Positions 7,962 to 51,288 of a DNA stretch of 64,000 nucleotides are shown here, in pieces. Position numbers and translations under genes: made by a program. The DNA lies in assembly GCA_965246835.1 (NCBI GenBank), contig CBDFFQ010000001.1:2558451-2622450 (forward strand), in the 5' to 3' direction. The notes beneath the pieces were generated by a model, which saw nothing but the letters and a program-made list of their open reading frames with translations, made no database searches and was not told the DNA's origin. Source of the stretch: Acetobacteraceae bacterium (GTDB lineage: Bacteria; Pseudomonadota; Alphaproteobacteria; Acetobacterales; Acetobacteraceae). The first letter of the stretch is position 1. Every line of letters begins with the position of its first letter.

Positions 7962-8630
7962 ATGCCTTCCAAATCCGGCATCCTTTTTTACGGCGACCCG
8001 CACGGACGTTGGCAGCCGCTGCTCGACGAATATGCCCGCCATCCTGCCAAAGCCGTGGTCCTCCTCGGCGATTGCGAGTTGTCGGCTCCTCTCGCAGAGA
8101 CGCTGAAACCCATCAGCACTGATGGGTGTCCCATTCATTGGATTTACGGGAATCATGACAACCACACTGAAAACCAATGGGACAACCTCACAAGCGCCCC
8201 GAGCGGTTTGCATGGCCGAGTGACCGATGTGGCGGGCCTGCGGCTGGCCGGGCTGGGCGGCAATTACGCCGCTAAAATCTGGTATCCTAAGGTCGGCAAC
8301 GAGGAACCCCGTCTCCGCACACGGCGGGAATTCCTGAAGAGCTTGCCGCGCTCTGGTCGTCCCGGGACGGAATTGCCCCTTGAGCGCCGTGCTTTGATTT
8401 TCTCGGAGGACCACGACGCGCTGAAGCGGCTGCGGGCTGATGTGCTCGTGTGCCATGAAGCACCCACCAGCCATCCGCATGGGTTTGGCGGGATTGATGA
8501 GCTGGCGAAGGCGATGCGGGTGAGGCTAGTCGTGCACGGCCATCATCACGTCGGTTATCGCGGTGCGTCCCAAGACGGAATTGAGGTCCGGGGGCTCGGC
8601 ATCGCGGAGTGCTGGCGGCACGAAGTGTAG
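7962..8630 (+). CDS. calcineurin-like metallophosphoesterase
   Basis: Motifs GDPHG, LLGDCE, GNHDNH, VCHEAP, VHGHHH. Confidence 0.8.
   Translation: MPSKSGILFYGDPHGRWQPLLDEYARHPAKAVVLLGDCELSAPLAETLKPISTDGCPIHWIYGNHDNHTENQWDNLTSAPSGLHGRVTDVAGLRLAGLGGNYAAKIWYPKVGNEEPRLRTRREFLKSLPRSGRPGTELPLERRALIFSEDHDALKRLRADVLVCHEAPTSHPHGFGGIDELAKAMRVRLVVHGHHHVGYRGASQDGIEVRGLGIAECWRHEV
8109..8126. repeat. motif B copy 1 (CCCATC-N6-GATGGG)
   Basis: CCCATCAGCACTGATGGG, inside the phosphoesterase CDS. Confidence 0.7.
8356..8371. repeat. motif A copy 1 (core GTCCCGGGAC)
   Basis: gtcGTCCCGGGACgga. In a CDS, read as R-P-G-T. Confidence 0.8.
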
Positions 8631-8896
8631 CTTCACGCAACGCTGTGTGGGAGGCGTGCCATTGTCCGCCGGGATGATAAGCTCTGCTTGCTCCCTGCTT
8701 TTCAAGCTGGCACGGTCCCGCCCGAATGAGCAGGTATCGAGTCGGTGGACCAAATCAAGAGCGGGAGATATGGCGTTGTTCCGGGACAGTTCTCCGGCCT
8801 TTTAGCGCGCTTGCCATCCGGCTGTGAGGGTCCAGCCTGTGTTCGCGGCATAGGGGCGGAATTGCCGCTGGTTAACCTTCGGCTGAAGGCATTCTA

Positions 8897-9952
8897 ATGG
8901 CGTTAGCGGAAGCGGTGCCAACACCAGATGCAGTAGAGCACCTGAAGGGAACACCTCAGCGGAAGGCATCCAGAATCGCCTATTCGACCGATTCCGGCTC
9001 CATGTATCACGGGTTTATAGAAGATGTCCTGAAGCGGCCCGACGTCAGGCAATCTCGCGGCAAGGTGGACCTGATATTCACGTCTCCGCCGTTCCCACTT
9101 GTCACCAAAAAGCGCTACGGCAACGAGACGGGCGAGGCATATCTGAACTGGCTTACGTCGCTGGCCGAGCCACTGGCAGAGATGCTGGCACCGAACGGCT
9201 CTATAGTGATGGAGGTTGGAAATGCGTGGGAGAAGGGTTCGCCCACGATGTCCACGTTGCCGCTGGAGTCGCTACTGGCCTTTAAGAAGGCAGGAAACCT
9301 GCATCTCTGCCAGCATGTGATTTGTCACAATCCTGCCCGTCTTCCGAGCCCGGCAGCTTGGGTAACCATCAAGCGCCTTCGCCTGAAAGACACCTACACA
9401 CATGTCTGGTGGATGTCGAAAAGCGAATATCCGAAAGCAGACACCCGCAAAGTGCTGACTCCCTACAGCAAAGAAATGCTGAAGCTGCTCGCTCGCCAGT
9501 CCTATAACTCCGGCCAGCGCCCCTCGGGGCATAAGATTTCAGAGCGGGGCTTCATGACCGACCAGGGAGGAGCCATTCCAGCGAACGTTCTCGACTTTCA
9601 GGACGGCGACGACCGCCTTCCTCCAGCGTTGATGAAGTTCGCCGGCACCGGGTGGGACACGAAATACAGGGATTACTGCAAGGAGATGGGAGTGGATGCC
9701 CACCCGGCTCGCATGCAGATGAGTCTGGCCGCGTTCTTCATAAGCTACCTGACTGACGCAGGGGACCTGGTGCTCGATCCATTCGCGGGTTCCAACACGA
9801 CCGGTGCCTCTGCCGAGCAGTTAGGCCGGAGATGGCTAGGGGTCGAAGCCGAGGAACAATATGTAATCGGGTCAAAAGGCCGCTTCAGCGGCTTCTTCGG
9901 TGCCGGGTCGAAAGGGCAGCCCTCCTCTTCGCAGGATATCGAACATGAATGA
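8897..9952 (+). CDS. DNA methyltransferase, beta-class (N4-cytosine or N6-adenine)
   Basis: Motif IV FTSPPF precedes motif I LDPFAGSNTTG, which is the permuted order typical of the beta class. The stop overlaps the next gene's start. Confidence 0.8.
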   Translation: MALAEAVPTPDAVEHLKGTPQRKASRIAYSTDSGSMYHGFIEDVLKRPDVRQSRGKVDLIFTSPPFPLVTKKRYGNETGEAYLNWLTSLAEPLAEMLAPNGSIVMEVGNAWEKGSPTMSTLPLESLLAFKKAGNLHLCQHVICHNPARLPSPAAWVTIKRLRLKDTYTHVWWMSKSEYPKADTRKVLTPYSKEMLKLLARQSYNSGQRPSGHKISERGFMTDQGGAIPANVLDFQDGDDRLPPALMKFAGTGWDTKYRDYCKEMGVDAHPARMQMSLAAFFISYLTDAGDLVLDPFAGSNTTGASAEQLGRRWLGVEAEEQYVIGSKGRFSGFFGAGSKGQPSSSQDIEHE

Positions 9953-11534
9953 CGTGATAGCCACGGATAGTTTCGAGACCGACTTCTCCGTCGGCCCACA
10001 GGCAATCGCCAACTACAGTCGCCTGAGCTACACGATGTGGCACGCGCTGGCGGAATTCATCGACAACTCCACCCAGTCCCGCCTAAACTACGGCTCCATC
10101 ATAGATGATGTCCTGAACCAGGAGGGTACGCCCCTGGTGGTGGATATCACCCACAATCGCGTCGCCAAAACGATCACAATCTCCGACAACTCGATTGGCA
10201 TGACCAAGGACGACTTGGTTGACGCATTGAAGATTGCAATGCCGACGAAAGACAGCCGCGGTAGGTCGAAGTACGGGATGGGCATGAAGACAGCTGCCTG
10301 CTGGATAGGAGCTGTCTGGGAAATAAGCACGGTCGAGTGGCTGAGCGGAACTCGCTACTCAGCCGTCATCGACGTCGATTCTGTGAGCAAAGGCGGCAGG
10401 ATAACTATTCTGAGTAGCCCGGTCGGAGAAAACGAACACGGCACTTCGATAACCATCTCAAAGCTTCATCGGAATGTTCAGAAACGAACAGAGGGGACAA
10501 TTCGCGACTATCTTGGCTCGATGTATCGCTTTGACCTTGCGCGTGGCGCGACAAAGCTTCTCTATAACGGTACCGAAATAAAGCCCATCGATGAGTATGA
10601 CGTGGACACGGACCCCGCTGGGAACTTAATGCGGATGGACCTCCCAGGTCTGACCATCAACGGTAAAGCCGTGACGGGATGGGTAGCCATCCTGAAGAAG
10701 GGCGGCAGGAAATTCGGTGGGTTTTCGCTGTTTCAGAATGAACGCCAGATTCAGGGCTTTCCGAACGCCTGGAAGCCAAAGGTCATATTCGGCGGGGAAG
10801 ACGACGAAGGGGCCAACAATCTTGTGGCTCAGAGACTGACCGGAGTGCTCAATCTGGACGGGTTCGAGGTGTCACACACCAAGGATGCCATACTCTTTCA
10901 GGGGGATGAGGAAGAGGAGCTGGAGACGTTCCTCAAAGGTTTCACGAAGGACTATCGCGACTACGCAAAGAATAGACGGGGCCCTAAGAAGACCACCTGG
11001 ACGCGGGAGAAAGTGCGCGACCTGATGGTCGACCTGAAAAAGGAGTTTAGCAGTCCGGAATTCAAAGATACCGTAACGAACTCGGTTCTTCCGCCTATCG
11101 AGGTTATTCTGGCCGGCAACCAGAAGCAGCTCGAAAGCATCGAGCCAGCCGACCATATTGGCACGTTCGACATTCCGCCGGACCTGAAGGTGGTTGTCTC
11201 CTTCCTGGAGAAGAGTGTCTACGAGCCCTACGTGACGCTCGTCGCGGGTGCGAACCCTGGCACGATCCATGTCATTATAAACGGATTGCACCCCTATTAC
11301 TCATCGCTGGAAACCGGCGAGGCGATCCACGAGTGCATGAAGCAGTTTGTTTATGATGCGATAGCCGAATACCGAGTACGCAAGCTGTCCAGCAAGATAA
11401 GCTGGGAAAGCGTGCGGCTATTGAAAGATGACCTTCTGAAGGCGAAACTCGTTCAGATTGAGAACCGGGCGGCAGCAGAGCAGGACGGGGACGAGGTCGA
11501 TACCGGCAAGGTTGATCCAGACACGGACGAGTAA
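9945..11534 (+). CDS. GHKL-superfamily (MORC/HSP90-like) ATPase
   Basis: N-box AEFIDNS, G1 ISDNSIGM, G2 YGMGMKTAACW. Start set at ATG 9945 (MNDVIATD), which overlaps the MTase stop. Confidence 0.75.
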   Translation: MNDVIATDSFETDFSVGPQAIANYSRLSYTMWHALAEFIDNSTQSRLNYGSIIDDVLNQEGTPLVVDITHNRVAKTITISDNSIGMTKDDLVDALKIAMPTKDSRGRSKYGMGMKTAACWIGAVWEISTVEWLSGTRYSAVIDVDSVSKGGRITILSSPVGENEHGTSITISKLHRNVQKRTEGTIRDYLGSMYRFDLARGATKLLYNGTEIKPIDEYDVDTDPAGNLMRMDLPGLTINGKAVTGWVAILKKGGRKFGGFSLFQNERQIQGFPNAWKPKVIFGGEDDEGANNLVAQRLTGVLNLDGFEVSHTKDAILFQGDEEEELETFLKGFTKDYRDYAKNRRGPKKTTWTREKVRDLMVDLKKEFSSPEFKDTVTNSVLPPIEVILAGNQKQLESIEPADHIGTFDIPPDLKVVVSFLEKSVYEPYVTLVAGANPGTIHVIINGLHPYYSSLETGEAIHECMKQFVYDAIAEYRVRKLSSKISWESVRLLKDDLLKAKLVQIENRAAAEQDGDEVDTGKVDPDTDE

Positions 11535-12688
11535 TGTCACCGCTGGCACTTCGAGCGTGGCAAGAGCAGGCGTTGCCTCGATGGCGTGCACAAGGTCATC
11601 GGGGAATTGTCGAGGTGGTCACCGGGGGCGGAAAGACTGTCTTTGCGCTTGCGTGCATTGCCGACCTTAAGGCGGAAACGGTGCTCATCGTCGTTCCGAC
11701 CGTCGCTCTCCTGGAGCAGTGGTGGGCGGAGGCAGCCTCGTTCTTCGGTCTGGATCTGGATGAGATAAACATCATCTCCGGCAACCGTTCGGTCGTGAGC
11801 GGCACCATCAACATCGCCGTTCTAAATACGGCGGCGAAGCTCGCAGGCAGACGCGGTATCAAGGACTGCTTCCTTATCGTAGACGAGTGCCACAAGGCGG
11901 CGACCCCGCAGTTCAGAGCCGTTCTCGAAATTCCGAAATTTGCGGCACTGGGCCTGTCGGCTACCCCGGAGCGCCAGTATGATGACGGTCTGGCGCAAAT
12001 TCTAATTCCGGCGCTCGGCCCGGTCATTTACCAATACAGCTACCGCGAAGCCATTCTGGACGGCGTGATCGTCCGCTTCGAGCTTAGGAACATCGTCTTC
12101 GAACTGGAGGCTGACCGAGCAGCGGAATACGAGAAGCTGTCCAAATCCATTGCCCGGTCGGTTGATCGATTCGGGATTGAGTCCGAGCAGGCAATTGCCC
12201 TCCTGCTCCGACGGACAAGGCTGGTAAACCTCAGCCTGGAACGCATTCGTATCACTATCAGGCTCATAAACCGGCACAAGGGTGCGCGCATCCTCGTTTT
12301 CCACGAGGACATCGAAGCGTGCGATCTGATCCTGCAATTCCTCAGGGAGGCGGAGTTCCGGGCGGGGGCCTACCACTCCAGACTTCCGGCCCGGCAACGT
12401 GTCGAGTCACTTGCGGCCTTCCGCCGGGGTGACCTCGACATCCTGATTACGTGTCGTGCGCTTGACGAGGGTTTCAATGTTCCTGAAGCGCAGGTGGGCA
12501 TCATCGCGGCCAGTACGGCAACGCGCCGTCAGCGCATTCAGCGACTGGGCCGCGTCCTCCGACCTGCGGCAGGTAAGAGCGAAGCGGTTGTGTATACCTT
12601 GGTTGCCACGGGACCCGAGGTAGGCAGGCTGAAGGAAGAGGAAGATGGATTGGCGGACCTGGCGACAGTCACCTGGGTCCATGCATGA
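11534..12688 (+). CDS. SF2 DEAD/DEAH-box helicase (type III restriction res-like)
   Basis: Walker A TGGGKT, DECHK, SATP, QRLGRVLR. TAATG overlap with the upstream gene. Confidence 0.8.
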   Translation: MSPLALRAWQEQALPRWRAQGHRGIVEVVTGGGKTVFALACIADLKAETVLIVVPTVALLEQWWAEAASFFGLDLDEINIISGNRSVVSGTINIAVLNTAAKLAGRRGIKDCFLIVDECHKAATPQFRAVLEIPKFAALGLSATPERQYDDGLAQILIPALGPVIYQYSYREAILDGVIVRFELRNIVFELEADRAAEYEKLSKSIARSVDRFGIESEQAIALLLRRTRLVNLSLERIRITIRLINRHKGARILVFHEDIEACDLILQFLREAEFRAGAYHSRLPARQRVESLAAFRRGDLDILITCRALDEGFNVPEAQVGIIAASTATRRQRIQRLGRVLRPAAGKSEAVVYTLVATGPEVGRLKEEEDGLADLATVTWVHA

Positions 12689-13458: not shown

Positions 13459-13981
13459 CCGGGGCGGCAGGCTGGGTAACGCGTCTGAAACCATCGTCAA
13501 ATTCCGGCCGGGGGCACGCTCAGTTTAGAACACCACTGAGGCTGCCAATGGGTCAGGGCGGTCTAGAGGAGGCACCGCTCCGACTCAATGACGAACAGCA
13601 CGACTATTTGGGACCGCTGCTAAGCCGCCTTCAATCCTTGGTCACGGGAGACGTACTGGGCATCCGGGAACTCGGCACGGAGTGCGGCGACGACCGCTGC
13701 ATCGGCCCCCCACAGGACGAGAGCTGACCCTTTGCCGGATCCAGAATTCCGCCCTTGCCCAGAGCCGTCAATAAATTTCACCCGACGCTTCAGCAGCAGC
13801 ACGTCAGCGACACCGTAAACACTTGCTGACCACCACCGGGTATCAAAGCTTCCGGGGACAAGCCCCACGACCAGCGAGGCCTCACCAGTATCGACCGCTC
13901 GGGCGCAACGTTCGACGCAGGCGACGATTTCGCGTCCGTACGGGGGATTCGCGTACACAACACCCTCCCACCGCGCCACTA

Positions 13982-15033
13982 GAGCGGTTTCCATTCATTC
14001 TGGCTCATACCCGGCGGCAGTGAAGTAGCTGGCGCAGTCCTGCGCGGTAAAGCAGGGAAGCGCGTTGCGGATCACGTCCCATAGGTCGTCGATCGTGCGT
14101 GCTGCTGCCTTGCGCAGGTAGGCTTTGAGCTTGGAGAAGGCATTCTCGATTGGGTTGAAGTCGGGGGAGTAGGGCGGCAGGTAGCGTAGCGTGGCCCCAA
14201 CTGCCTCGATCGCCCGCCGCACGTCTGCGCCTTTATGCGCGGGCAGATTATCCATGATGACGGTGTCGCCTCGGTGGAGCGTGGGCACCAGCACCTGCTC
14301 GATGTAGGCCTGGAAGGCGATGCGGTTCATCGGGCCGTCGAGGACCATGGGCGCGGTCATGCCGCTGACCCGAAGCGCGCCGGTGAAGGTGGTCGTCTTC
14401 CAGTGACCATGCGGCACGGCGGCGCGGCAGCGCTCGCCTTTGCGGGCGCGGCCGCGGATCCGGGCCATCTTGGTCGATGCGCCGGTCTCGTCGATGAAGA
14501 CCAGGCGCTTGGGGTCGAGGTCAGGCTGGCCTGCGAACCAGGCTCGCCGTCGGGCTGCGACGTCGGGCCGCTCCTGCTCGGCTGCGTGCGCTGTTTTTTT
14601 TGAAGGTGAGGCCGTGGCGGTCGAGGCAGCGCCAGATGGTGCTGGGGCCGAACGAGGCGCCGTGGTGGTCGCGCAGCAGGTCCGACAGCTCAGCCAAGCT
14701 GATGTCCTTCTGGGCCGCGACCGCTGTCAGGATCACGCCGCTGAAGGCCTCGATCCGACGCGAGCGGGTGTCGCCGCCCTGCGGCTTGGGCGCGACGGAC
14801 CCGGTCGTATTGACTGCCTGCACCCACCGGACGGCGCTCGCAGCTGAAACACCAAACCGCTCCGCCGCAGCGCGCCGAGACATGCCGTCTGCAACCGCCG
14901 CAACAAGCCGGGACCGTAGATCGACGGAAAGAATCTTCCCCATGCACGCTGGCCTCCTAACCAGCCTGCATGGTGAATCACATCACGCCCGCGTCGGGGA
15001 ATCCCTTTGATTCAGACCGGACGAGAACCGCTC
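13982..15033 (-). mobile_element. IS630-family insertion sequence, copy 1 (1052 bp)
   Basis: Terminal inverted repeats GAGCGGTT(C/T)C. Flanked by TA/TA within CTAG. All six-frame ORFs are identical to copies 2 and 3. Confidence 0.9.
13995..14943 (-). CDS. IS630-family DDE transposase (two frames joined at a T8/A8 run)
   Basis: orfA is an HTH part (14521..14943). orfB is the DDE part ([28 protein letters not shown]). The A8 run lies at 14594..14601. Confidence 0.85.
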
Positions 15034-15553
15034 TAGTGCATCCTCCTCGCGGGTGATGTAGCGGATTGCGGGCACAGGGCTTCGCTCCATCCCCGGCGAG
15101 AACGCATCTACATCGAACTGCTCGCGGCCCAGGGCCTTGAGAATACGGGCGAGCAATGGCTTGGGCGTGTACCATTCGACATGGGTACTGGGTCCGCGCC
15201 CGAAAAAGGGTTTCACCTCATCTTCGCCGGTCACTGCAAGCCGTTCGAAGGCACGATGTGTGTCCTGGGACGCACCGACATCATTGGCAGCCGTCGGCCG
15301 CTGCTTTCCGCGCTTCGAGACATGCCGCCGCAGCGGCTGCTCTCCCCGTCGCGCAAGGCAACCATCCAACTGACGAAGAACCCACTCATGGAGTGGCGCG
15401 CCGTCATTGGCTGCATGCCGGTGAAGGCGGTCCAGGTCCTCGCGATAGAGATAAAGCGAAGTGGCCGAGGTCTCGCGCTTGATGCCGGTCCGGGTATCAT
15501 CCTTTTCGTCGCGGCGGTTTCGCGTCGGCGGGGTTGTCACCGCCGCTTTCGTC

Positions 15554-15569
15554 TCCGTCCCGGGACGGA
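15554..15569. repeat. motif A copy 2 (perfect 16-bp palindrome)
   Basis: TCCGTCCCGGGACGGA, inside the MTase CDS. Confidence 0.8.
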
Positions 15570-15822
15570 CGACCGCGACCTCTCGCGCGGCTTTCACCAG
15601 CGGAGCCAGGACGTGCTTGCCCAGCCACGCGACGACCGGAATGGACAGGCCGTCACCGATGCACTTCACAGCCGACGACAGGGCATCCGGAAGGACGAAA
15701 TCATCCGGCAGACCCGACAACCGCGCCAACTCCCGACCGGAGAAATCTCGGATGCGGACACCGGTCGGGTCGGCACGAAGCACCAGCTGGCGCGCACGCC
15801 CCGCGGTGAAACACCGGGCAAT

Positions 15823-15840
15823 CCCATCGGTGTAGATGGG
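15823..15840. repeat. motif B copy 6
   Basis: CCCATCGGTGTAGATGGG, inside the MTase CDS. Confidence 0.65.
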
Positions 15841-16847
15841 AAGTGCAGGAGTGCATCCTTCACGCCGGTCGGTACGCTGGGCGGCAATGATGCCGAGCAC
15901 GGAGCTATCGGCCCGCATGCGCTCCACATCAGCCACGTCGGCTGCTCGGCAACCGGCAAGGATGCGCTCCACACGGTCCGGCTTGAACCAGGCGTGACCA
16001 TCGTCATCGTCCAGCAATTCTGCCAGAGACGGCACCGGAGCGTCCGGTTGCGGCATCGTCAGCCACAACCATTCCCGTCGCGCAGCCAGAGGAAGGCGGG
16101 CGACGGCCTGCACGAGTGGCGCGGGGTGCCATGCGGGGTCCGGCTTCTTCAGCAGCATGTTCGAAGGGACGACCACATCGCGCCGGATGGCTACGATGAA
16201 CAGGCGCTTACGCAGAACCGGACGGAACCGGTCGGCATCGATGACCACAGCGCCGACCCGGTAGCCGAGGTTCAGAAAGGTCTGAACAAGGGCCGCAAAG
16301 TCTCGGCTCTCAGCATGAGAGGCGAACCGGGTCACATTCTCGCAGCAGACTACCGGTGGCATCGTGCCGAGCAGACTGTGTTCACCCAGGATTCGGGACA
16401 CATCGAACACGAGGCTGGCCCGCATACCCTTGAGGCCTGCGCCGTCTCCGAGCGCTGAGTGGTTCACACAGGGAAAGCTGACCCAGAACAGGTCAGCGAC
16501 AGTCATTCCGACAGCGCGGACTTCTTTGATGCTCCGTTCATCGAAAGGGACATCGGGATGATTCTGCCGGAAAACGGCAGCTTTGAGCGGGCTGTTGTCG
16601 TTGGCGAGAGCAGTCTTGAAAGCGGGGGCGAGAGCAATGCCTGCGCCGCCGATACCGGCGAAAAACTCAATGAGAGTGTAGGTTTCCTGCTGATTGTCGT
16701 CCATTTTGAAATTCCGAACACGCGCGCACGTTCGGACCGGCTGACCGGCGTAGGGTCAGGGGTCCCGTCGGGGGCGGGCCGCGCGCCGGATGGCACGGGC
16801 CGGAGCGCGTTATCATTTCGAAACAGTCGGTTCGGAGGTTCATCGCT

Positions 16848-17801: not shown

Positions 17802-18356
17802 TCAGGTCTGCGGCAGAACGCCCATCCTCACCAGAGCCGCCCCTGCCACTGCGCGTTGCATCTCCGTCGGCCGTTCCGGCGGCAGCAACTCCGACATCGG
17901 CCCGCCAAGGCTTGCCGTTCCCTCCTCTCCGGGCAGACCGAGCGCACGCAAGCCGGTCGGCTGCCCATCTTTGCCACGCAGGATTTCTCTTACGGACGAA
18001 AGGCTGACCACCTCATTGTCGACCCTGCCTTGGACGACAACAGCGACAGCTTCGACGCGGCGCTCTGATTCTGAAGGAGCGACACCGGGTGTCGGCTGGC
18101 CGACTACCATCCAGACTTCCGAAAAGTGACTCGCGAGGACGGCATCCTCGGCGATGGCGAGAAGCCGTACGGCCGTCATGGACGCGGCTTTCATGTCGGC
18201 GCTGCTGAAGTCCGGGACGACCGGAATCAGGGTGCCGTCGGCGGTGGTCAGGGCGACGAAAGGCGCGAGAGAGCCGTCACGAAGCAGGACGGCCTCGGAG
18301 TGCTGAGCATCGTGGTCAAGGCGGGCGTGCAGGTCGGTAAGGGTGAGGTCGGCCAT
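17802..18356 (-). CDS. hypothetical protein
   Basis: 184-aa ORF. A motif A copy lies 47 nt upstream of its start. No motif recognised. Confidence 0.55.
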   Translation of the reverse strand: MADLTLTDLHARLDHDAQHSEAVLLRDGSLAPFVALTTADGTLIPVVPDFSSADMKAASMTAVRLLAIAEDAVLASHFSEVWMVVGQPTPGVAPSESERRVEAVAVVVQGRVDNEVVSLSSVREILRGKDGQPTGLRALGLPGEEGTASLGGPMSELLPPERPTEMQRAVAGAALVRMGVLPQT

Positions 18357-40934: not shown

Positions 40935-41624
40935 ATGACAAACGCGAGCAAAGATACTGTTCTGCTTTCAACGACCGAGGCTGCGGAGCTTGCCGGTGTG
41001 AGTCAGCAGGCACTCAATCTGTGGATCCACCGCGGTCTTCCCGGTGCCCGTCGGCTGGGTGGGTCGTGGGGCATTGAGCGGGAGCAGTTCGAGGCGTTCC
41101 TGCGCCATCGCGCCGCCCACTGCGCAAAGAACTGGTATCGCAGCTTCGGGAAAGCCGCGGTCGAGGCCCCGGGGTCAGACCCCTCCGTCTCTCAGGACTT
41201 CATCACCATTGCCGATGCAGTCCGGCACAGCGGGTTTACGAAGAGTGCCGTTGAGGGGTGGGTCAAGAGGGGCGTGGTGTCTGCCGTGCATGTCGGAACC
41301 AGGCGCTGGCTGCTCAGCCGGGCATCACTGGATGCGTGGCTGCTGCGGCGGACCGAAGAGCCGAACCTGCCCGGGCACATCACGGTCGGGAAGGCAGCGG
41401 AGCAGGCGGGCACCGACAGGGACACCATACGGAAGTGGCTGAAGCGAGGGCAGGTAGCGGGGACAACCGTTGACGGGAACAAAATGGTGGAGAGTGCGTC
41501 GCTGGAAGCGTGGCTGGTCAGGCGGGCACATCATTACAGGCGACGTCCCGAGTGGATAGGCGGCAAAGGCAGGAAGCGGGTCAGCGCCTCAGTCCAGCAC
41601 CGAACTGAAGTCCGGCCGCAGTAG
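40935..41624 (+). CDS. DNA-binding protein with three tandem excisionase/MerR-type HTH (HTH_17-like) modules
   Basis: Three repeats: LLSTTEAAELAGVSQQALNLWIHRG, FITIADAVRHSGFTKSAVEGWVKRG and HITVGKAAEQAGTDRDTIRKWLKRG. Each is followed by ..SLDAWL / SLEAWL / QFEAFL. Confidence 0.65.
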   Translation: MTNASKDTVLLSTTEAAELAGVSQQALNLWIHRGLPGARRLGGSWGIEREQFEAFLRHRAAHCAKNWYRSFGKAAVEAPGSDPSVSQDFITIADAVRHSGFTKSAVEGWVKRGVVSAVHVGTRRWLLSRASLDAWLLRRTEEPNLPGHITVGKAAEQAGTDRDTIRKWLKRGQVAGTTVDGNKMVESASLEAWLVRRAHHYRRRPEWIGGKGRKRVSASVQHRTEVRPQ

Positions 41625-42347
41625 ATAGCGCTGAGGTGCAAACCGCAGATGCCTGACTACAGGGAGCTGCGGGTCGCGGGAGATGGGCAGCGTGACCGAG
41701 AAGTTCCGCACCACGACGTGGCAAACATCACCCCGGACTTCGAAACGGAACGGGTCGCTCCAGAACGGCATGTTTTCAGCGGACGGTGCGGGTGCGTCAC
41801 CCCCGAGGACCATCTGGGACATCGCAGGTATATCCCGCAGGAATCTGTCGGGTGCGAAGAACTGCCTCCGCGCCAGAATGCCGGCAGGCGTGAAAGCGAC
41901 CTTGTAGCCAAACCTTGCGACCATCGCGAGATAGCCCACCGAAAACGCAGCAACGCTCACACGCTCCGTTAGCTTACCTTTGCCTCTGAAAACCGAACGG
42001 TTCATCAGCGCTCGCAATGACGCGTCGTAGAAGCTGCCCTTCCACCCGTTGCAGCCGTTGCCCTGCGTTCGCCGCCCTTTCACGGTCAGCGGCGCGCTGC
42101 ACAGCAGGATGTGGCCGCTGCGCATGCTGGCCGAAAGGCTTGCCTTCACGAACTGAGGGTCATCGGCCAGGGCTTGCCGCGGAACGATGTGCTCAAGGCT
42201 GAATGCACTGCGTTGAAGGAGGCGGCCACAAACACAACAGCGCAGGCGGTCGGCCTCTACGGGCCCGCTGACCGCTTCCAGGTCTGCCCGCATCTCATGC
42301 CAGAGCTTGTCCGTTCGGGCCGCGGTAAGCAGGTTCATCTCGCCCAT
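41589..42347 (-). CDS. HNH-type endonuclease domain protein
   Basis: CCVCGRLLQRSAFSLEHIVPRQAL ... NGCNGWKG. The start overlaps the relaxase stop. Confidence 0.6.
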   Translation of the reverse strand: MGEMNLLTAARTDKLWHEMRADLEAVSGPVEADRLRCCVCGRLLQRSAFSLEHIVPRQALADDPQFVKASLSASMRSGHILLCSAPLTVKGRRTQGNGCNGWKGSFYDASLRALMNRSVFRGKGKLTERVSVAAFSVGYLAMVARFGYKVAFTPAGILARRQFFAPDRFLRDIPAMSQMVLGGDAPAPSAENMPFWSDPFRFEVRGDVCHVVVRNFSVTLPISRDPQLPVVRHLRFAPQRYLLRPDFSSVLD

Positions 42348-44260
42348 GGCGGCACCGGAACATATGCGGGAGCCTCATCGAGCACTGCCCAATCAAAACC
42401 GAGGCCGGCTGCTTCCTCCCGCAACTCAGCCTGCTCCTCATCGCTGAGGGGACAATCCAACACCTTAATACCTTGCCTGAGCAGTTCCCGCGCCGCAGCA
42501 ACCCTGAACTCCGGGTCGCCATCCACCTCGACTGCTTGCCAGCCACGCCGGGCGACGCAGGCGACCAACTCGGCAACGGCGACGTCGTCCGCCGGACCTT
42601 TGACGGTTATCTTGTCGCCTGTATCCAGAATTTGCGTGCCGCTCCACAGGGTCAGCATCACGTATTTGCCGTCCTCCTCAACGTCCACACGCCTGAGCGC
42701 CAGCACGGCCTCCACGGGCAGGTAATCAACCAGTTTGTATGTACGTTTCACGACCAGCGCGAGAAAGCGCAGCCGGCGTTCCCTGACGGTCTTGGGGTCC
42801 TCGGCACAGCGCAGCGACACCTTGGGGCTACCTTCAGGCGCAGGACGGATGTCAAAGCGGTCGATGCTGCGGAGTGCCGCACCAAGCCACTCATCGCGCT
42901 GATGCCGTCGAAAATGCTGTTCGAGTGATGCGGCCTCAAGAAGCTTCTTCAGGCGCGCTGCTCGCCTGTTCTCTGCTTCCTCGGCTTCGGCACCGCCCGC
43001 TCCACTTCTATCTTCTCGGCCAGCGTTGCCTCGTCCGCCTGCCGTGCTGCTCTGGGCGAGGCGATACGCAGCAGTGCGTTCAGCAGCTGCTTCACTTCCC
43101 GCAGTTCCTGCACTTGCTCCGTCAGTAACGCCTCTATCCTGTCGAGTGACGTTGCTCCGTCCGTCGCCTCGGCTCTGTCCAGCAGCGACATCAATCTGCT
43201 CACCCCGCTTCCCGCGTCGAGCGCTGCCGCGACCGGCGGGGTCATCCCGCGCCTGTCCAACTCTCTGAGCTGTGCCGGCTCGCCAATACCTGCGAGAAAC
43301 TCGTCGTACTCGCCCGTTCCCCAAATCCTGTTCTGCGATTTGCCCTGTATCATCGTGTTCCTCCCCTTGGAGCGGTTTCCAGCCGCCCATCCATGTTTCG
43401 GCTTCTCCGAGCTTCACCTTCAGCAGCCTGTGCAGCGCGCCGGCATACGACCAGTTGCCCGCGCGGCTTTGAACCTCGATTATCCAGCGGCTGTCTTTCC
43501 GTCCCGGGACGGTCCGCAGGCCGTATTCGGCAAGCGATGCTGCGAATGCCTCAGGTCCGTCGCTGAGCATGCGGCATTCCCGCACCTGGTCAGCAATCTC
43601 CGGCAACGTCCGTTCTGCGAGTTTTTGCGTTTCCTTGTCGTCTTCGTCCTTGCAACGGCTCGCCCGACGCTTCACCGCCTGCACTTGGTGAGTTGTGTAG
43701 GCGGCCTGCGGTTCTGCCTTCACGTTTAGGCCGTCGCCAATCAACAAGTCTGCATCGTCCTCCCGCCCTTCAGCACGCAGGCGCTCGATGATGATGCGGT
43801 TGAACGCGCCCTGAACAATGCTGTGGCCCCAGCGAGCTTCGAGGACGCGGCTAACCTTCTCCTGCCGCGCGTAACTCCAGCGGCTACTGAGCACGCGACC
43901 GTTTGTTGGGTTCACCTCCGGCACCAGCACGTGCAGGTGGAATTCTGAAGCCGCATCGTGCAGCCGCCGTTTCTGATGGCCCACGACTACGGCATCATCT
44001 TCGCTAAAGCCGAATTCCAGCGCGAGGTCCGTCACCGCTTCCGCCATTTGCGCACGGGTGGGTGTCTCGCGCGGAGCTATCTTGAAATGCCGAATCCCGT
44101 ATGTCCGCCGCCAATGGCGCGCGTCATCAACGGCATCATACAGGGCCTGTTCGCTCCCTTGCAGAACGACAATCCGCTCGTTCGCCGTGCCATGGAATAC
44201 GTGGTCAGCCGTGGCTTTCGCACCCTTCGAAGCCAGCAGGCGGGCGCTCTGGACAATCAC
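42335..44260 (-). CDS. relaxase/mobilization nuclease with C-terminal LPD7-like domain
   Basis: The N-terminal 150 aa carry a histidine triad-like FHLHVLVPEVNP. Ala/Arg/Gly-rich linker. C-terminal ITVKGPADDVAVAELVACVARRGWQAVEVDGDPEF. Confidence 0.7.
   Translation of the reverse strand: MIVQSARLLASKGAKATADHVFHGTANERIVVLQGSEQALYDAVDDARHWRRTYGIRHFKIAPRETPTRAQMAEAVTDLALEFGFSEDDAVVVGHQKRRLHDAASEFHLHVLVPEVNPTNGRVLSSRWSYARQEKVSRVLEARWGHSIVQGAFNRIIIERLRAEGREDDADLLIGDGLNVKAEPQAAYTTHQVQAVKRRASRCKDEDDKETQKLAERTLPEIADQVRECRMLSDGPEAFAASLAEYGLRTVPGRKDSRWIIEVQSRAGNWSYAGALHRLLKVKLGEAETWMGGWKPLQGEEHDDTGQIAEQDLGNGRVRRVSRRYWRAGTAQRVGQARDDPAGRGSARRGKRGEQIDVAAGQSRGDGRSNVTRQDRGVTDGASAGTAGSEAAAERTAAYRLAQSSTAGGRGNAGREDRSGAGGAEAEEAENRRAARLKKLLEAASLEQHFRRHQRDEWLGAALRSIDRFDIRPAPEGSPKVSLRCAEDPKTVRERRLRFLALVVKRTYKLVDYLPVEAVLALRRVDVEEDGKYVMLTLWSGTQILDTGDKITVKGPADDVAVAELVACVARRGWQAVEVDGDPEFRVAAARELLRQGIKVLDCPLSDEEQAELREEAAGLGFDWAVLDEAPAYVPVPPWAR
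43498..43513. repeat. motif A copy 9
   Basis: tccGTCCCGGGACggt. In the relaxase CDS, read as V-P-G-R on the minus strand. Confidence 0.8.
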
Positions 44261-44742
44261 CGCAGCCCCCTTGGCCGTAACAGCGCGGTAAGCTCACCCC
44301 GCAGCCCGTCCAGAGCCGTGTGTGCATCCCGCACTGCCTTAGACAGCGCCTCGGCATCCACGGCTTGCCCGGCCTTGGCAGCCGCATTTGCGTGCGCCAT
44401 GGCCTGGTTGAGATTGCTGCCCACGCCGCTCCCGATATCCCGCCGAAGCCGCGCAATCTCGGCAAGCACCTCATCCGACAGCCGTGGCGTACTCTCCCCC
44501 TCAGCAGCCGAAAGCAGAAGCCCTCGCGACCATGATGAGAGGTCAGGATATCCCGCCCGCCTGGATGCTGCGGTCAGCCGGATCTTCTCACTCGGTAGAA
44601 CCCTGAAGCGAACAAACCCGCTTCGGAAAGCCCTGACTGACGGCGGACGGCCACCACGATCACGCTTCGTCGCGGGCTTCCCATCCGGTAACGCGAAGGG
44701 GTCGGACAGCCAATCTGCCATGTCAGGGAGCCGGGCTTTCAT
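44257..44742 (-). CDS. mobC: MobC-family relaxosome accessory protein
   Basis: Start set at MKARLPDMADW. GSNLNQAMAHANAAAK is the MobC signature. The stop overlaps the relaxase start. Confidence 0.75.
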   Translation of the reverse strand: MKARLPDMADWLSDPFALPDGKPATKRDRGGRPPSVRAFRSGFVRFRVLPSEKIRLTAASRRAGYPDLSSWSRGLLLSAAEGESTPRLSDEVLAEIARLRRDIGSGVGSNLNQAMAHANAAAKAGQAVDAEALSKAVRDAHTALDGLRGELTALLRPRGLR

Positions 44743-45154
44743 GACCGCCGGTTCCGTGGTCACCTGAGTTACTGAGCACCTCCACAGGCGGCGTGACACC
44801 ATAGGTGCGGGCGTGCGTGAGGTAGCCGTAAAGCGCACACTCCACAGCGTAGCCCCAGTTAACCGCTGTCTGGAGGTTTTCAGCGTAATGATTGAAAACA
44901 CGGACCGCGGGCGACATTGTTTCCTCGTCAACGTGGGCCTGGCATAGCGTGACTGCCCCAGCGTCAGCTGGCTCCTCAGTGCCTGCAACCCGCCCCATGT
45001 CGGCGAAGACGGGCCGAAGAAGTTCAAGCAAAGGCTCGGGCGTATTCTCGTCCATCCAGCGGGGTAGGTTTTCGGCGATGTACCTGACCGTCTCCGGCGG
45101 AACCGCTGGCACGCTGCCGTCAACCGTTTCATTGCTGCTTATTCCTGTCGTCAT
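44723..45154 (-). CDS. hypothetical protein
   Basis: Start set at MTTGISSNETV (ATG 45154). Coding-like. Overlaps the mobC start. Confidence 0.5.
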   Translation of the reverse strand: MTTGISSNETVDGSVPAVPPETVRYIAENLPRWMDENTPEPLLELLRPVFADMGRVAGTEEPADAGAVTLCQAHVDEETMSPAVRVFNHYAENLQTAVNWGYAVECALYGYLTHARTYGVTPPVEVLSNSGDHGTGGHESPAP

Positions 45155-45187
45155 AGCCCACTCTCCTTCATGCGGAGCGGCATCAGT

Positions 45188-45203
45188 GCCGTCCCGGGAC
45201 GGA
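45188..45203. repeat. motif A copy 10
   Basis: gccGTCCCGGGACgga, 37 nt upstream of the 45154 start. Confidence 0.8.
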
Positions 45204-45400
45204 TGAGAAGACCGATACCTGCTTGACCGCTCAGGGCCGCTCAGGCGGGGGTTCCACAGGGGCGCAGCCCTTTGGCGAGTTGTTCTGTGGCACACGGAAC
45301 ATGCCTCGCAATCCCTGATAGTCTTCACCATCCGTGTTACTGAGGATAGTCGGCCCGTACGCAAATTACCGGTGAAATCGTATTATGGAAGTAATTGGGT

Positions 45401-45416
45401 TCCGTCCCGGGACAGA
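45401..45416. repeat. motif A copy 11
   Basis: tccGTCCCGGGACaga, intergenic. Confidence 0.8.
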
Positions 45417-47813: not shown

Positions 47814-48043
47814 ACGGGAAAATCGCCTCACAAGGCTCTCAGGTGGGTGTTTTTCGTCCGTCTGCTGTCTGCATACATCCCGAAGCCATTTCATGCGCCT
47901 GCGCGTCTCTGACGGCATCCGCGGGGCATGCGTGCATCTGTCCCTCATGCTCCGACGGCACCGGTCCCACGTCCTTCGGGGTTGTGCTTTTCTTCGAGGG
48001 CCGAAGACGACGCGCCAAGAGCGCGGCGGCGAGGGCCGCACTC

Positions 48044-48067
48044 CTAGGATATCTTAGTATATCCTAG
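48044..48067. repeat. inverted repeat CTAGGATAT-N6-ATATCCTAG next to oriV
   Basis: 9-bp perfect arms. The related AGGATATCCT occurs at 51347..51356, upstream of the primase-helicase gene. Confidence 0.6.
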
Positions 48068-48110
48068 TATACGCGCCAGACGCTCAACGATTCCAATGGG
48101 TTAGACCCCC

Positions 48111-48176
48111 ATCACGACGGCAAAACGACAATACCACGACGGTAAAACGACAATACCACGACGGTAAAACGACAAC
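48111..48176. repeat. oriV iterons: three tandem 22-bp direct repeats
   Basis: atCACGACGGcAAAACGACAAT / ACCACGACGGTAAAACGACAAT / ACCACGACGGTAAAACGACAAc. Followed by the GACAAC-att-GTTGTC hairpin and an AT-rich stretch (48181..48300). Directly beside repC. Confidence 0.8.
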
Positions 48177-48329: not shown

Positions 48330-49265
48330 TCAAGCCGACACTCCGATTACGAATTGGTCGGAGTTTCTTTGTCGTGATAAAGTTTGTTTCTCCGCATGGC
48401 TCTCCCTTTTTACCGTGACGAGCAATCGCCGCCGGTTCTCCGACAAACACCAGCCGTCGAGAGCACTTAGGTCTTCAAGACCGTGACGAACCTCCTCTCG
48501 ACGGCGAACTCGTTCCCGCATAGAGGATGCTGCCAAGCCGTATATCCAGTCACCCAGCTGATCAGTGCTGACAGTGAGGGACCGACCCTGACGTACGGTC
48601 AGGGTTAGCCGAAGATGCAAAAGTCTCGCCATCTCGCCGAGCTGACGCGACTCAGTCAGGTTGACGCGGACAAAATGCGCTCCCAGAATTACGGCTGCAA
48701 AGCGCGCGTTTATGACCACAACAACTTCCCCGGTCGCCTCATCCATGCTGAAGGACAAAAGTCTCTGGGAGCCGCCGGTTCTGTGCGAACGGGCATTTGC
48801 ACTCACCGGCCCGAGGTCAGTGTAAGCAACCATCGACATACGTTCCAGCGAGGAGGCAACCCGGTCGTAACTGTCTCCGTTCGCTTGAAGACCGGCTTCT
48901 CGGCATGTTGCATAAAGCGTCGTCCGAATACGGATATGTTTTGACTCGGCGACTTCACCCTTCGTCTCCAGGCCATCAACTATCGCCACTCGCGAGGCTT
49001 CAGAGCCCGCGGCCGTAATAGTGCTGCCCAGAAACCCCGCAAGAGCCATTATGGATAAGAGAACCGACAGGTCGTCGGCTCCTAGAGTGTAGGGGCCAAC
49101 GACCTTGAGTTTTCGCCCGTCATGAACTGCCTCAACTTCGAACATTCTCTTCCGGGCCAACGCTCTCCCCTTCCGCGGCAACGGCCTGAAAAGATTTTGC
49201 CCCATCAACCCGGGGTCAACCATGGCGAAATCCGTGAGTTCTCTGGCTACAGCGAGCCTAGTCAT
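48330..49265 (-). CDS. repC: IncQ-type replication initiator RepC
   Basis: NLFRPLPRKGRA..KLKVVGPYTLGADDLSVLLSIMALAG and EMARLLHLRL resemble RSF1010 RepC as I recall it. Adjacent to the iterons. Start set at ATG 49265 (MTRLAVA). Confidence 0.7.
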   Translation of the reverse strand: MTRLAVARELTDFAMVDPGLMGQNLFRPLPRKGRALARKRMFEVEAVHDGRKLKVVGPYTLGADDLSVLLSIMALAGFLGSTITAAGSEASRVAIVDGLETKGEVAESKHIRIRTTLYATCREAGLQANGDSYDRVASSLERMSMVAYTDLGPVSANARSHRTGGSQRLLSFSMDEATGEVVVVINARFAAVILGAHFVRVNLTESRQLGEMARLLHLRLTLTVRQGRSLTVSTDQLGDWIYGLAASSMRERVRRREEVRHGLEDLSALDGWCLSENRRRLLVTVKRESHAEKQTLSRQRNSDQFVIGVSA

Positions 49266-51288
49266 CGGAACGGCGTACAATCCGGCCTCTCCCTTCAGGA
49301 CTGACAGTTGCCGGCAGGTCACACGCTCTCAGAACGCCGCCCGCTTCACGGAACAGCCACCGCTCCGGCGGTGGCGCGGCATAGTTGCTCTTGCTGACCA
49401 CCCAGCGAATCCACCTTCGACGCTCCTCATCAGCGATGCCGTGGGCCAGCGCCTCATCCTTGCTCAACCCTACCAAATTGCTCTGCCAGCGGGCGTTATC
49501 GGTTATGGCTCCGGCACCTCGTGCGGCCTGCTGTTCATCTCCCTGGCCTTCTCGTGCGGCACCTTTGCTGACGTGGTGCAGCACGAGGCACGCAGCGCCG
49601 ACAGGGGCGACCATGGCCTCCAACTCCGACACGATTCGGCCCTGAGCCGCATTGTCGTTTTCGGGGATGCCGGCAAGACAGCGGTTCAGCGTATCGAGAA
49701 CTACGAGCCGCGGCCTTAACTCCAGCACTTCCCTGCGAAGCACCTCGAATGCCGCTGAAGGCTGGAATCCCGCTGGCGACCACGTGCCGAAACCGAAATT
49801 TGTGCCCTGCACCGCCTTGACTCTGAAGTTGCGCCGGAAGAGCTCATCATTTCCAAGGGAGATATTCGCACCCGGCACGTTCACCAGCGCGTGCAGCCGA
49901 TGCGCCAGTATCGCCTTTGGGTCCTCCGCAGACAGCAGAAGCACCGGTCCCGCTTCGGGGTCGTGAGGCAGCAGCCCCCACATGCTGCGGCCTGCCGCGA
50001 CACATGCGGCCAGCCCGAGCGCCAGCATTGACTTACCCGCACCCCCCGGACTCACGAGCACGGCCATCGTACCCGCGAGGATGCCCGGCAACACGAAGTC
50101 GAGCGGCGGAGGCGGCTCCGACAGGATGGCCTCCAGATTCAGGTAATCCTGCCAGAGCGCGCCTACCGGAACGTTTGTCGTCTGAGGGGCGACGGCCGCG
50201 GCACTGTGCATCTCGCCGGTCAGAAGTTTCTCGACGGCACTCCGGACCTTCACGGTGGCCTCAGCCTGAAGGCTGTTCAGCCATCGTCCTGACACCTCGC
50301 AGCCGTCGGAAAATTCCTGAACAACCTGCGCGACGATGCGAGCGGTAACGTTCGAGATGTCCCCGTCAGCGTGAGCGGATTTCAACGATGCGCTGTTCGA
50401 GCGCACGACGTTCCACGCCAAATCGCGGAGGTGGCCCTCACGCCCGTCCGTAAGCACGCCCGTCCGTCCCGGGACGGATGCTGTGTGTAGTTGTGTGCCG
50501 ACTTGACCCCGTGCCGACAGAGCGAACGGATATTCGGCCGCGACGGTAGACATGAATGTGTCGACCAATGCCGCAGGCACTGCGGGCGCTTCATCGGGGC
50601 AGGAGGTCAATGGACTGAGTTCAGGCCAGTGGAAAAATCGGCCCGTGATGTAGTGGATGCCGTGCAGCGTCAGAGCTTTGCCTGCTCCGAGAATCTCAAC
50701 CGCACATTCATCGCGTCCTTCGAGTTTAACCATCCGACTGGCAGGCGAGCCACCACCATCGTATCGGTAAATCAGGGCGACCTTCGGCGCGCGTCCGATG
50801 CGGATGAACGGTGTCTGGCCCAGGACTTCGGCGGCAATGGCCTGGATGCGGCGGCTTACAGCCTCGTCCATGCAGTCGACGTCCACGCAGAATGTGTTTC
50901 CGCTGGCCGTCCCGAGCGCACACGCTACGTTGGCCCGCGGTGCATGCCGCACAAACCGCTTCATCTCGGCCTCGGACGGCGGACGTTCCTGAAAAGGCTT
51001 CCAGGCGACCACAGCGTCCTCGATACGGGACGGCATTCTTTTCCCATCCCGGTCCTGCGGCCATACGCTCCAGCCATTGCCCAGCATCATCGGTCCGGCG
51101 ATGGCGAATATGTCGTCACCCGGCGCGTAAAGGATGTCGGTCGTGTTTTCGACCCGCTGAAACCGACCTGTGCCAGGCACAAATGGTCGGCTGACGGGTT
51201 CGGAAGCGGCGCTCACCTGAGGAGGTGCGCGGGGATTCTTTTGTAATGGGCTGAAATGCGCATTATGCTGTCCTCGTGCGTTCAACAA
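49258..51288 (-). CDS. bifunctional primase-polymerase (PrimPol-like) / RepA-type (AAA_25) replicative helicase
   Basis: N-terminal part GWSVWPQDRDGKRMP..VAWKPFQERPP..FCVDVDCMD. C-terminal Walker A SPGGAGKSMLAL, Walker B LVVLDTL, then VLHHVSKG. The true start is uncertain (TTG 51288, with later GTG/ATG candidates). Confidence 0.7.
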   Translation of the reverse strand: MLNARGQHNAHFSPLQKNPRAPPQVSAASEPVSRPFVPGTGRFQRVENTTDILYAPGDDIFAIAGPMMLGNGWSVWPQDRDGKRMPSRIEDAVVAWKPFQERPPSEAEMKRFVRHAPRANVACALGTASGNTFCVDVDCMDEAVSRRIQAIAAEVLGQTPFIRIGRAPKVALIYRYDGGGSPASRMVKLEGRDECAVEILGAGKALTLHGIHYITGRFFHWPELSPLTSCPDEAPAVPAALVDTFMSTVAAEYPFALSARGQVGTQLHTASVPGRTGVLTDGREGHLRDLAWNVVRSNSASLKSAHADGDISNVTARIVAQVVQEFSDGCEVSGRWLNSLQAEATVKVRSAVEKLLTGEMHSAAAVAPQTTNVPVGALWQDYLNLEAILSEPPPPLDFVLPGILAGTMAVLVSPGGAGKSMLALGLAACVAAGRSMWGLLPHDPEAGPVLLLSAEDPKAILAHRLHALVNVPGANISLGNDELFRRNFRVKAVQGTNFGFGTWSPAGFQPSAAFEVLRREVLELRPRLVVLDTLNRCLAGIPENDNAAQGRIVSELEAMVAPVGAACLVLHHVSKGAAREGQGDEQQAARGAGAITDNARWQSNLVGLSKDEALAHGIADEERRRWIRWVVSKSNYAAPPPERWLFREAGGVLRACDLPATVSPEGRGRIVRRSDD
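50463..50478. repeat. motif A copy 12 (perfect 16-bp palindrome)
   Basis: TCCGTCCCGGGACGGA. In the primase-helicase CDS, read as V-P-G-R on the minus strand. Confidence 0.8.

Follow-up and report, generated by a model that had tools for sequence, protein, structure and literature searches.

Dispersed, element-specific palindromes are the footprint of plasmid global control, as exerted by KorB, ParB or omega, and have rarely been described for integrative mobilizable islands. Among mobilizable islands without a mating pore, SGI1 carries AcaCD boxes and the mobilizable genomic islands (MGIs) carry SetCD boxes, in each case several copies of one regulatory motif, and these islands also encode a substitute mating-pore component. 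On chromosomes, ParB-family proteins read scattered multi-copy palindromes of 14–16 bp that are mostly intragenic, namely parS and the Noc-binding sites (NBS), for which the B. subtilis consensus is ATTTCCCGGGAAAT. In relaxosomes, the known accessory proteins (NikA of R64, MobC of pC221/pC223 and TrwA of R388) bind one to three sites at the origin of transfer (oriT). The short palindrome OB, the operator of KorB in the IncP-1 plasmids RK2/RP4, is element-specific, has the core TTTAGCGGCTAAA and occurs about a dozen times across the whole element (12 sites in RK2), with some copies beside promoters and others distant or intragenic. KorB acts on promoters up to 1.5 kb from OB sites (PMC11790492). 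A comparable layout was found in the window analysed here, a 64-kb stretch of DNA from an Acetobacteraceae bacterium (contig CBDFFQ010000001.1, positions 2,558,451 to 2,622,450), in which an island of ~46.1 kb carries 12 exact copies of the 10-bp palindrome GTCCCGGGAC. The observation was confirmed, and it is stronger than the initial annotation, made from the window alone, could know, since the motif is a conserved hallmark of a small family of mobilizable islands.

The length of the island follows from a 17-bp direct repeat, TCCTTCCGCCCCAACCA, at its two ends. The first copy (attL, 6009–6025, forward strand) forms the 3' end of a tRNA-Gln gene (5951–6025), and the second (attR) is at 52162–52178 on the same strand. 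The G+C content is ~0.60 in the island compared to ~0.70 in the flanks. All 12 copies of the motif lie between the direct repeats, where they span 42 kb, and none was present in the 17.8 kb of flanking chromosome despite 17 CCCGGG sequences there; the number, the positions and the confinement to the island given in the initial annotation were all reproduced. Based on dinucleotide-preserving shuffles of the window, the chance expectation for GTCCCGGGAC was 0.10 copies, with a maximum of 1. Every occurrence of TCCCGGGA in the window (12 of 12) was part of GTCCCGGGAC. The inner 10 bp are invariant among these copies and the outer three are variable, nine of the 12 having the extended form CGTCCCGGGACG and two, as previously noticed, being perfect 16-mers, TCCGTCCCGGGACGGA, which start at 15554 and 50463. 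The per-position information profile of the copies was limited to 16 bp and fell to background level beyond, so the copies are not fragments of longer repeats; a second element near them, GCTGTC, was sought and was unsupported by the same profile. Two extra sites, at 15262 and 21756, are the central-transition variant GTCCTGGGAC. When the spacing of GTCC and GGAC was varied, enrichment was seen at 2 bp only. A literature search for the 10-mer returned unrelated primer sequences only.

Relatives of the island were found through homologues of its PrimPol-helicase, its vWA-like protein and its candidate relaxosome accessory protein. They keep the backbone gene order of the window and their shared proteins are mostly 40–90% identical, a range in which synonymous positions should be largely saturated. 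Within 187.8 kb from ten related elements, the window included, 48 GTCC-YR-GGAC sites were counted, 33 of them CG-centred. The CG-centred and the TG/CA/TA-centred copies numbered 12 and 2 in the window, 4 and 3 in L007 (one contig with L003), 3 and 2 in L008 (one contig with L002), 4 and 0 in L160, 3 and 2 in L161, 2 and 0 in L159, 2 and 1 in L001, 2 and 0 in L009, 1 and 0 in L005, and 0 and 5 in L006, respectively. The family-wide consensus is C-GTCC-YR-GGAC-G, which is sharpened to TCCGTCCCGGGACGGA in the window island. One further relative, L092, was considered as a motif-free member of the family and rejected as such, since its single site in 9.6 kb is, by a Poisson estimate, not significantly under the family density.

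The background control comprised 1.38 Mb from 80 loci, mostly of Acetobacteraceae and other alphaproteobacterial metagenome-assembled genomes (MAGs). These loci came from the 249-aa vWA protein, which was tried as a family marker and discarded, as they share that gene alone, and they were reused as the control. They contained one CG-centred copy and no TG/CA/TA-centred copy; as a ratio of counts, the family exceeds the control ~240-fold in density of the exact 10-mer. A genome-wide oligonucleotide bias and an absence from related elements would each have spoken against the initial annotation; the first was not borne out by the control and the 17.8 kb of flank, nor the second by the relatives. 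Genome-wide signals (uptake sequences, Chi, repetitive extragenic palindromic (REP) elements) are excluded by these controls; unlike REP elements, which are extragenic and longer, copies of the motif are intragenic and their conservation ends at 16 bp. Of 62 viral contigs preselected by a 14-mer version of the motif, nearly all were single-copy, and one held two exact copies 24 bp apart. No motif was present in plasmids with distant relatives of the relaxase and MobC (33–37% identity). A scan of genome contigs with the relaxase alignment gave no match, its patterns being too specific, and a scan of viral contigs for the accessory protein gave none either.

Since the relatives keep the motif and the surrounding chromosome is without it, the motif is most likely the binding site of an island-encoded protein. 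We lean, by a small margin of belief, towards the view that it would be a duplex-DNA site for a dimeric sequence-specific protein, forming a family-specific network over the whole element.

Several individual sites were conserved in position although their flanks have diverged, which is evidence of selection acting on them. The site in the variable linker of the PrimPol-helicase (copy 12, 50466–50475, within the perfect 16-mer 50463–50478) is read V-P-G-R, and it occupies the same position in L001 (10745) and L005 (1726), with adjacent codons and amino acids that differ among the three. The relaxase site (copy 9, 43501–43510, in the minus-strand gene 42335–44260), also read V-P-G-R, is common to the window, L007 (7527), L159 (8752) and L160 (7825) within the sequence G-L-R-x-V-P-G. 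The J-domain site (copy 8, 39695–39704, read S-R-D in the minus-strand gene 39575–40771) uses the same codons, for G-A-S-R-D-E, in the window, L009 and L010. Copy 7 (38804–38813) is intergenic; it follows the stop of the 249-aa vWA-like gene by 16 bp and precedes kfrA by 154 bp, and L008 has a site in the same place after the vWA stop. Copy 5 (29658–29667) is read V-P-G-R at the 3' end of a conserved 126-aa gene (29608–29988, minus strand) and also precedes the start of the next gene (29611) by 47 bp; a copy in L007 is ~30 nt away and in a different reading frame.

The remaining conserved position is upstream of the mobilization (mob) operon, which encodes the accessory protein and the relaxase. 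Copy 10 (45191–45200) lies directly upstream of this operon, at ~60 bp, and ~45 bp from an oriT-like block (45240–45320, minus strand) with the elements GGGATTGCGAGGCATG ... ACAACTCGCCA ... CCCTGTGGAACCCC. Homologous sites are at 5919 in L008 and at 6189 in L160, and L001 has one at 17921 that differs by a single mismatch. In these elements and the window the site is ~35–60 bp upstream of the operon, in alignable surroundings that include the oriT-like block. The block is single-copy in the window and is conserved in L008, L001 and L092; the idea that other motif copies act as secondary oriTs was rejected because of this single copy. Copy 11 (45404–45413) is intergenic and forms with copy 10 a 13-nt inverted pair, 197 nt apart. 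In a homologous gene of L159 and L160, motif pairs 102 bp apart were observed (3924 and 4026 in L159; 2078 and 2180 in L160), the second copy in L159 (4026) having an AG centre. This gene encodes 452 aa in L159 and 873 aa in L160, and there is none in the window.

Other copies lie in the cargo region (6–29 kb); its resolvase excepted, this region is without counterpart in the relatives. Copy 1 (gtcGTCCCGGGACgga, 8359–8368) is in a metallophosphoesterase gene (7962–8630), and copy 2 (15557–15566, within the perfect 16-mer 15554–15569) is in a C5 cytosine methyltransferase gene (14983–16704, minus strand), both read as R-P-G-T; the same methyltransferase gene includes the TG-centred variant at 15262–15271. 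Copy 3 (18403–18412) is intergenic, 47 bp 5' of the start of the open reading frame (ORF) 17802–18356 (minus strand). The second GTCCTGGGAC variant (21756–21765) is in the divergent intergenic region between a DUF3800 gene (20489–21640, minus strand) and a serine resolvase gene (21867–22487, plus strand), and copy 4 (21983–21992) is within the resolvase gene, read S-R-D. In four resolvase homologues examined from outside the family, all on plasmids and 66–69% identical, the motif was absent at the matching codons, which read S-R-E, T-R-T or R-R-D via other codons. Copy 4 was therefore gained in the lineage of the window.

With copy 6 (37102–37111, R-P-G-T in a conserved 150-aa gene, 36963–37415, plus strand), the intragenic copies are read R-P-G-T three times, S-R-D twice and V-P-G-R three times, in agreement with the earlier reading; a third S-R-D, at copy 10, is conditional on the uncertain ORF 44723–45364. 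As the copies occupy three reading frames and intergenic DNA, conservation is at the DNA level, as had been proposed. No copy was found in the three IS630 elements, the IS256 element or the DotA/TraY gene, again as described before.

The core of the motif contains CCCGGG, and it had been suggested that the sites are methylation-dependent marks. On this view they would be marks for methylation or restriction of the SmaI/XmaI type, written by a methyltransferase of the island and acting as an epigenetic switch. The island encodes an N4/N6 methyltransferase with SPPF at residue 63 (8897–9952, plus strand) in addition to the C5 methyltransferase. The most frequent variants change C to T at the central CpG, as deamination of 5-methylcytosine would. 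However, both enzymes belong to the cargo and are without counterpart in relatives that keep the motif. Conservation covers 10–12 bp and not 6, and CCCGGG without the motif flanks occurs a further 13 times in the island and 17 times in the chromosomal flanks. Mobile elements also usually avoid restriction palindromes, and the family avoids GATC ~four-fold.

The related element L006 bears most directly on this point. Its element part (4693–11628, 6.9 kb) contained no CCGG against ~31 expected and one GATC against 21.5 expected, with 50 CCGG in the adjoining 4.7 kb of chromosome, which looks like the signature of restriction avoidance at two 4-bp sites. The same part has five GTCCTGGGAC/GTCCCAGGAC copies and no GTCCCGGGAC; the chance expectation for these variant copies was ~0.02 by a composition-based estimate, and the control has 0. 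L006 has thus kept the motif through the smallest change that removes CCGG. The presence of the motif where CCGG is missing indicates that its function needs the GTCC/GGAC arms, tolerates a central T, and is independent of both CCCGGG and the central CpG. L161 similarly has two GTCCTAGGAC copies. A role as methylation marks is disfavoured by these data and is regarded as very improbable. Depletion of GATC, three- to four-fold in the family backbone, was also seen in L007, L008, L160 and L161; the counts were 21 against 82 expected in the window backbone (29200–52161), 19 against 71 in L007, and 142 against 135 in the flanks.

The variation of the family is concentrated at the central dinucleotide (CG, TG/CA, TA), small serine resolvases cut at a central dinucleotide of their sites, and copies lie beside or inside resolvase genes (21756 and 21983 in the window; 20333 in L161, 49 bp upstream of the gene). 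The sites could on these grounds be crossover or binding sites of a site-specific recombinase, with the serine resolvase as the obvious candidate. Known resolvase and invertase sites, however, are 26–30 bp long and A/T-rich inside, and a dozen recombination sites would scramble an element whose backbone gene order is conserved in its relatives. A resolvase was moreover seen in only three elements. Given the stable gene order and the conservation of only 10–16 G/C-rich bp, recombination sites are the least probable of the explanations considered, with very little to be expected of them.

A further explanation takes the sites as single-strand initiation hairpins, a dispersed version of ssiA/ssiB of IncQ plasmids. 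The PrimPol-helicase would recognise them and prime the complementary strand, either in strand-displacement replication or once the element has entered a cell by conjugation. The island has an IncQ-like replicon, with RepC, 22-bp iterons and a PrimPol fused to a helicase; a palindromic signal reads alike on either strand; and a spacing of a few kb would suit the priming of a 46-kb element. The predicted single-stranded hairpins were nevertheless weak (−2 to −6 kcal/mol), with z-scores of −1.7 to +0.75 against shuffles. Folding of the sites was thus no better than that of shuffled sequences, which points to duplex DNA rather than a hairpin. By inspection, the TG and TA centres shorten the possible stem, and yet they are retained. 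The iterons have no adjacent copy, the nearest being 2.3–2.7 kb away, and L160 has four copies with neither RepC nor PrimPol-helicase in its 17 kb of sequence. Priming hairpins are accordingly considered quite unlikely, at a level hardly above that of methylation marks.

Across the family, 29% of the sites are intergenic compared to 16% expected (p=0.014) and 71% are intragenic, while 21% lie within 150 bp upstream of a start compared to 14% expected (p=0.14). The claim that four copies sit just upstream of backbone gene starts is therefore only loosely true, the excess over expectation in the family being non-significant. Promoter and terminator scans gave no association with the motif sites. 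Together, the mild intergenic enrichment and the non-significant enrichment at starts make a classical repressor regulon a poor fit, and the spread of the sites fits a whole-element function better than a promoter-by-promoter set of operators. On the favoured view of a protein-binding network, the fixed site flanked by the oriT-like block and the mob operon start would most plausibly control mob transcription or relaxosome assembly. Further sites fall at the ends or starts of operons (after the vWA gene, before kfrA, at the junction of backbone and cargo), and some sites are plausibly operators, most of all the copy by the oriT-like block and mob promoter. About 70% of the sites are within genes, newly acquired cargo included. 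Candidate functions for such coverage of the whole element are concerted silencing, marking, or the positioning of the replicating circle after excision; the KorB-OB and ParB-parS networks of plasmids are laid out in this way.

The initial annotation had likened the layout to dispersed operator networks of the KorB type with no evident ParB or KorB homologue. Island genes were annotated by profile searches (Pfam and others) of about 60 ORFs, and the Pfam scans revealed no ParB, ParA, CbiA or AAA_31 domain; the precomputed Pfam lists for genes of the relatives contain no ParBc. The resemblance to the KorB-OB layout is thus supported, and membership of the KorB/ParB family is not. The motif shares with OB its shortness, its symmetry, its copy number of about a dozen over a whole element, and its mixture of promoter-proximal and distant or intragenic sites. 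In contrast to RK2/RP4, the window element has neither a ParB/KorB-family protein nor an IncC/ParA partner, the core of OB is unrelated to the motif, and in place of an IncP plasmid there is an integrative mobilizable island whose replicon is IncQ-like. The motif and NBS have the central TCCCGGGA in common, as well as scattered, mostly intragenic copies; the bases flanking the core differ, however, the central CG is dispensable in the island family (L006), and NBS and parS are chromosomal sites read by a protein family not found in the window island. Compared to the AcaCD and SetCD boxes, which are a handful of promoter elements, the motif is a compact perfect palindrome and mostly intragenic; the pore-less mobilizable island is the shared feature, and the counterpart of the substitute pore component would here be DotA/TraY. 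Finally, a conserved copy between the oriT-like block and the accessory-relaxase operon recalls the sites of NikA, MobC and TrwA, and the island accessory protein gives a weak NikA-like hit and contains NLNQ, a MobC-like motif. The difference is one of number, a dozen sites over 42 kb.

For the reader of the sites, an island-encoded DNA-binding protein is most likely, and it would be a protein of neither the ParB nor the KorB family. The accessory protein (44257–44706, minus strand) is the leading candidate, put forward tentatively and with more doubt than belief. It and the relaxase are the most widely shared proteins, present in all seven elements with a visible mob region, and the N-terminal segment RVLPSE...G..D.S.W.RG of the accessory protein is nearly invariant among 20 homologues. 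A related plasmid gene carries a MobC annotation. A single ribbon-helix-helix dimer, if that is the fold of the accessory protein, would fit a compact palindrome with no variation up to the dyad. The AlphaFold2 (AF2) monomer model of the accessory protein has a coil at residues 33–37 and helices at 38–50 and 58–68, and a Foldseek search of the PDB with this model gave no match.

The three binders named in the initial annotation fared less well. The protein with three HTH_17 repeats (40905–41624, plus strand) was found in the window and in no relative. The KfrA-like protein (37958–38650, minus strand; KfrA_N, E=1.4e-8) is present in the window, L001, L008 and L006, with 25–30% identity among members, and was undetected in the available stretches of the motif-rich L003/L007 and L009; a 246-aa protein of L007 and a 258-aa protein of L009 were tried as KfrA and rejected by profile comparison.

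The XRE-family regulator (36489–36875, plus strand) has an N-terminal domain like those of P22 c2 and of ImmR from ICEBs1. Six relatives have this regulator; its recognition helix, QRRYSSY without variation in the first five aligned, reads QRRYSAY in L160/L161. The motif was absent from its upstream regions, both in the five aligned and in L160/L161. These regions share another conserved sequence, which includes the palindrome CAGCTCTATAAGCTG (36454–36468 in the window), probably the operator or promoter of XRE itself. Repressors of the P22 c2 type read the outer and not the inner bases of their operators, the opposite of the pattern in the motif with its invariant inner 10 bp. A scan of metagenome contigs with the recognition helix returned five short fragments, all of the same family. 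The divergent promoter region between XRE and a gene of 130–166 aa is itself conserved (36427–36488 in the window, 11968–12108 in L008, 3329–3406 in L009).

Other candidate readers are an unannotated backbone protein, or a helper-element or host factor. The last two would make the sites the target of a factor supplied in trans, either a regulator of a helper with a type I mating-pair formation (MPF_I)/type IVB system or a host protein, through which the island would sense its helper and respond to it, in the manner of the AcaCD boxes of SGI1 and the SetCD boxes of MGIs. Alongside the relaxase and the oriT-like block, an orphan DotA/TraY was the only mating-pore or type IV secretion gene recognised in the island, which is therefore presumably helper-dependent. 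A conjugative plasmid of the MPF_I type is present in Acetobacter, the island itself encodes no convincing reader, and the identical motif persists even though the elements' own proteins have diverged to 40–60% identity. On the other hand, boxes for helper activators sit in promoters and not, as here in ~70% of cases, within genes; one plasmid region examined beside an MPF_I system had no copy; and a host factor should have sites on the chromosome, where the control and the flanks have one and none, respectively. Supply in trans is judged unlikely, while ranking above hairpins, methylation and recombination.

Several points weigh against an island-encoded network as favoured here. Enrichment, restriction to the family, conserved positions, gain in cargo and tolerance of a central C-to-T change are observed; that a protein binds, which one it is and to what effect are inferred. 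The ribbon-helix-helix fold of the accessory protein is putative, the NikA-like Pfam match being weak (E=0.021) and the model having a pLDDT of ~60 in the segment of the coil and helices. In other relaxosomes such proteins bind at oriT rather than at a dozen scattered places, and they are not known to use dispersed sites. The intergenic enrichment is mild, the proximity to start codons is not significant, and the scans found no ParA/ParB partner to lend substance to a role in partition. For the host chromosome, lastly, the counts cover 17.8 kb of flank.

A further idea, which we hold to be improbable, about as much so as supply in trans, is that a non-ParB system marks the whole island as 'self', with the motif as its site of loading or recognition and most copies placed inside genes. 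New copies would then be actively created in new cargo. The reader could be the accessory protein, acting as an element-wide silencer or organiser, or a novel DNA-binding fold among the unannotated backbone proteins.

Judged from its genes, the island is an integrative mobilizable element with an IncQ-like replicon. A tyrosine integrase gene (6303–7838) comes next after attL. At the other end, the IncQ-type RepC gene (48330–49322, minus strand) adjoins the predicted oriV iterons (48113–48175), which are 2.9 copies of a 22-bp unit (CACGACGGTAAAACGACAATAC) with 97% matches; three copies of a 10-bp repeat, TCCTAGTATA, lie ahead of the iterons in an IncQ-style origin region (48042–48175). The fused PrimPol-helicase is encoded at 49258–51288 (minus strand). 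The relaxase is of the MobA/VirD2 type with an LPD7 domain. The DotA/TraY family protein (30445–33453, plus strand; TIGR04346, E=1.4e-85) may stand in for a component of the mating pore and so serve to hijack an MPF_I helper; a conserved small gene lies upstream of it, and a conserved divergent pair (126 aa and 137 aa) is also beside it. Also encoded in the backbone are a HIRAN protein and a pair of proteins, one with a J-domain and one vWA-like. The genes of this pair (38829–40771) are 65–77% identical among close relatives, and the vWA protein has >800 homologues, mostly in Acetobacteraceae MAGs and usually outside the island family. An IS256 element (Transposase_mut, 34494–35693) interrupts the backbone. 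Beyond attR, an RF-1-domain (ArfB-like) neighbour at 52205–52669 is 72–74% identical to neighbours in L002 (2013–2435) and L159 (1787–2209); the same chromosomal neighbour in all three suggests a shared integration locus in related hosts.

The cargo includes the N4/N6 methyltransferase with a GHKL ATPase and a helicase, the C5 methyltransferase, DUF3800 and TIR proteins and the serine resolvase. Two segments (8897–12688 and 20489–25518) have the look of a defence island, with the N4/N6 methyltransferase, HATPase_c_3, a ResIII helicase, DUF3800 and TIR, and the equivalent place in the relatives holds other defence genes (type I restriction-modification, GmrSD, HATPase_c_3, AAA_11/12 helicases). 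Three IS630-type copies lie within a 12-kb stretch of cargo (13995–14943, 18929–19877 and 25558–26506), each with a helix-turn-helix ORF (140 aa) and a DDE_3 ORF (157 aa) of the same length and composition. The first adjoins a fragment of a Dam-like N6-adenine methyltransferase (13620–13994; Pfam Dam, E=1.3e-10), seemingly truncated by it.

No description of this island family in Acetobacteraceae-type bacteria was met, in work that included no literature search aimed at the family. The motif provides a sharp, searchable signature for a family that combines an IncQ-like replicon, a MobA relaxase and an orphan DotA/TraY, and the natural experiment in L006 already defines which of its bases matter. 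In a family without a ParB-type reader, the true reader would add a new protein-site pair for the coordination of mobile-element genes. If the sites do mark the island as 'self', they would be a novel means of control or protection, covering the 46 kb of DNA of an integrative mobilizable element.

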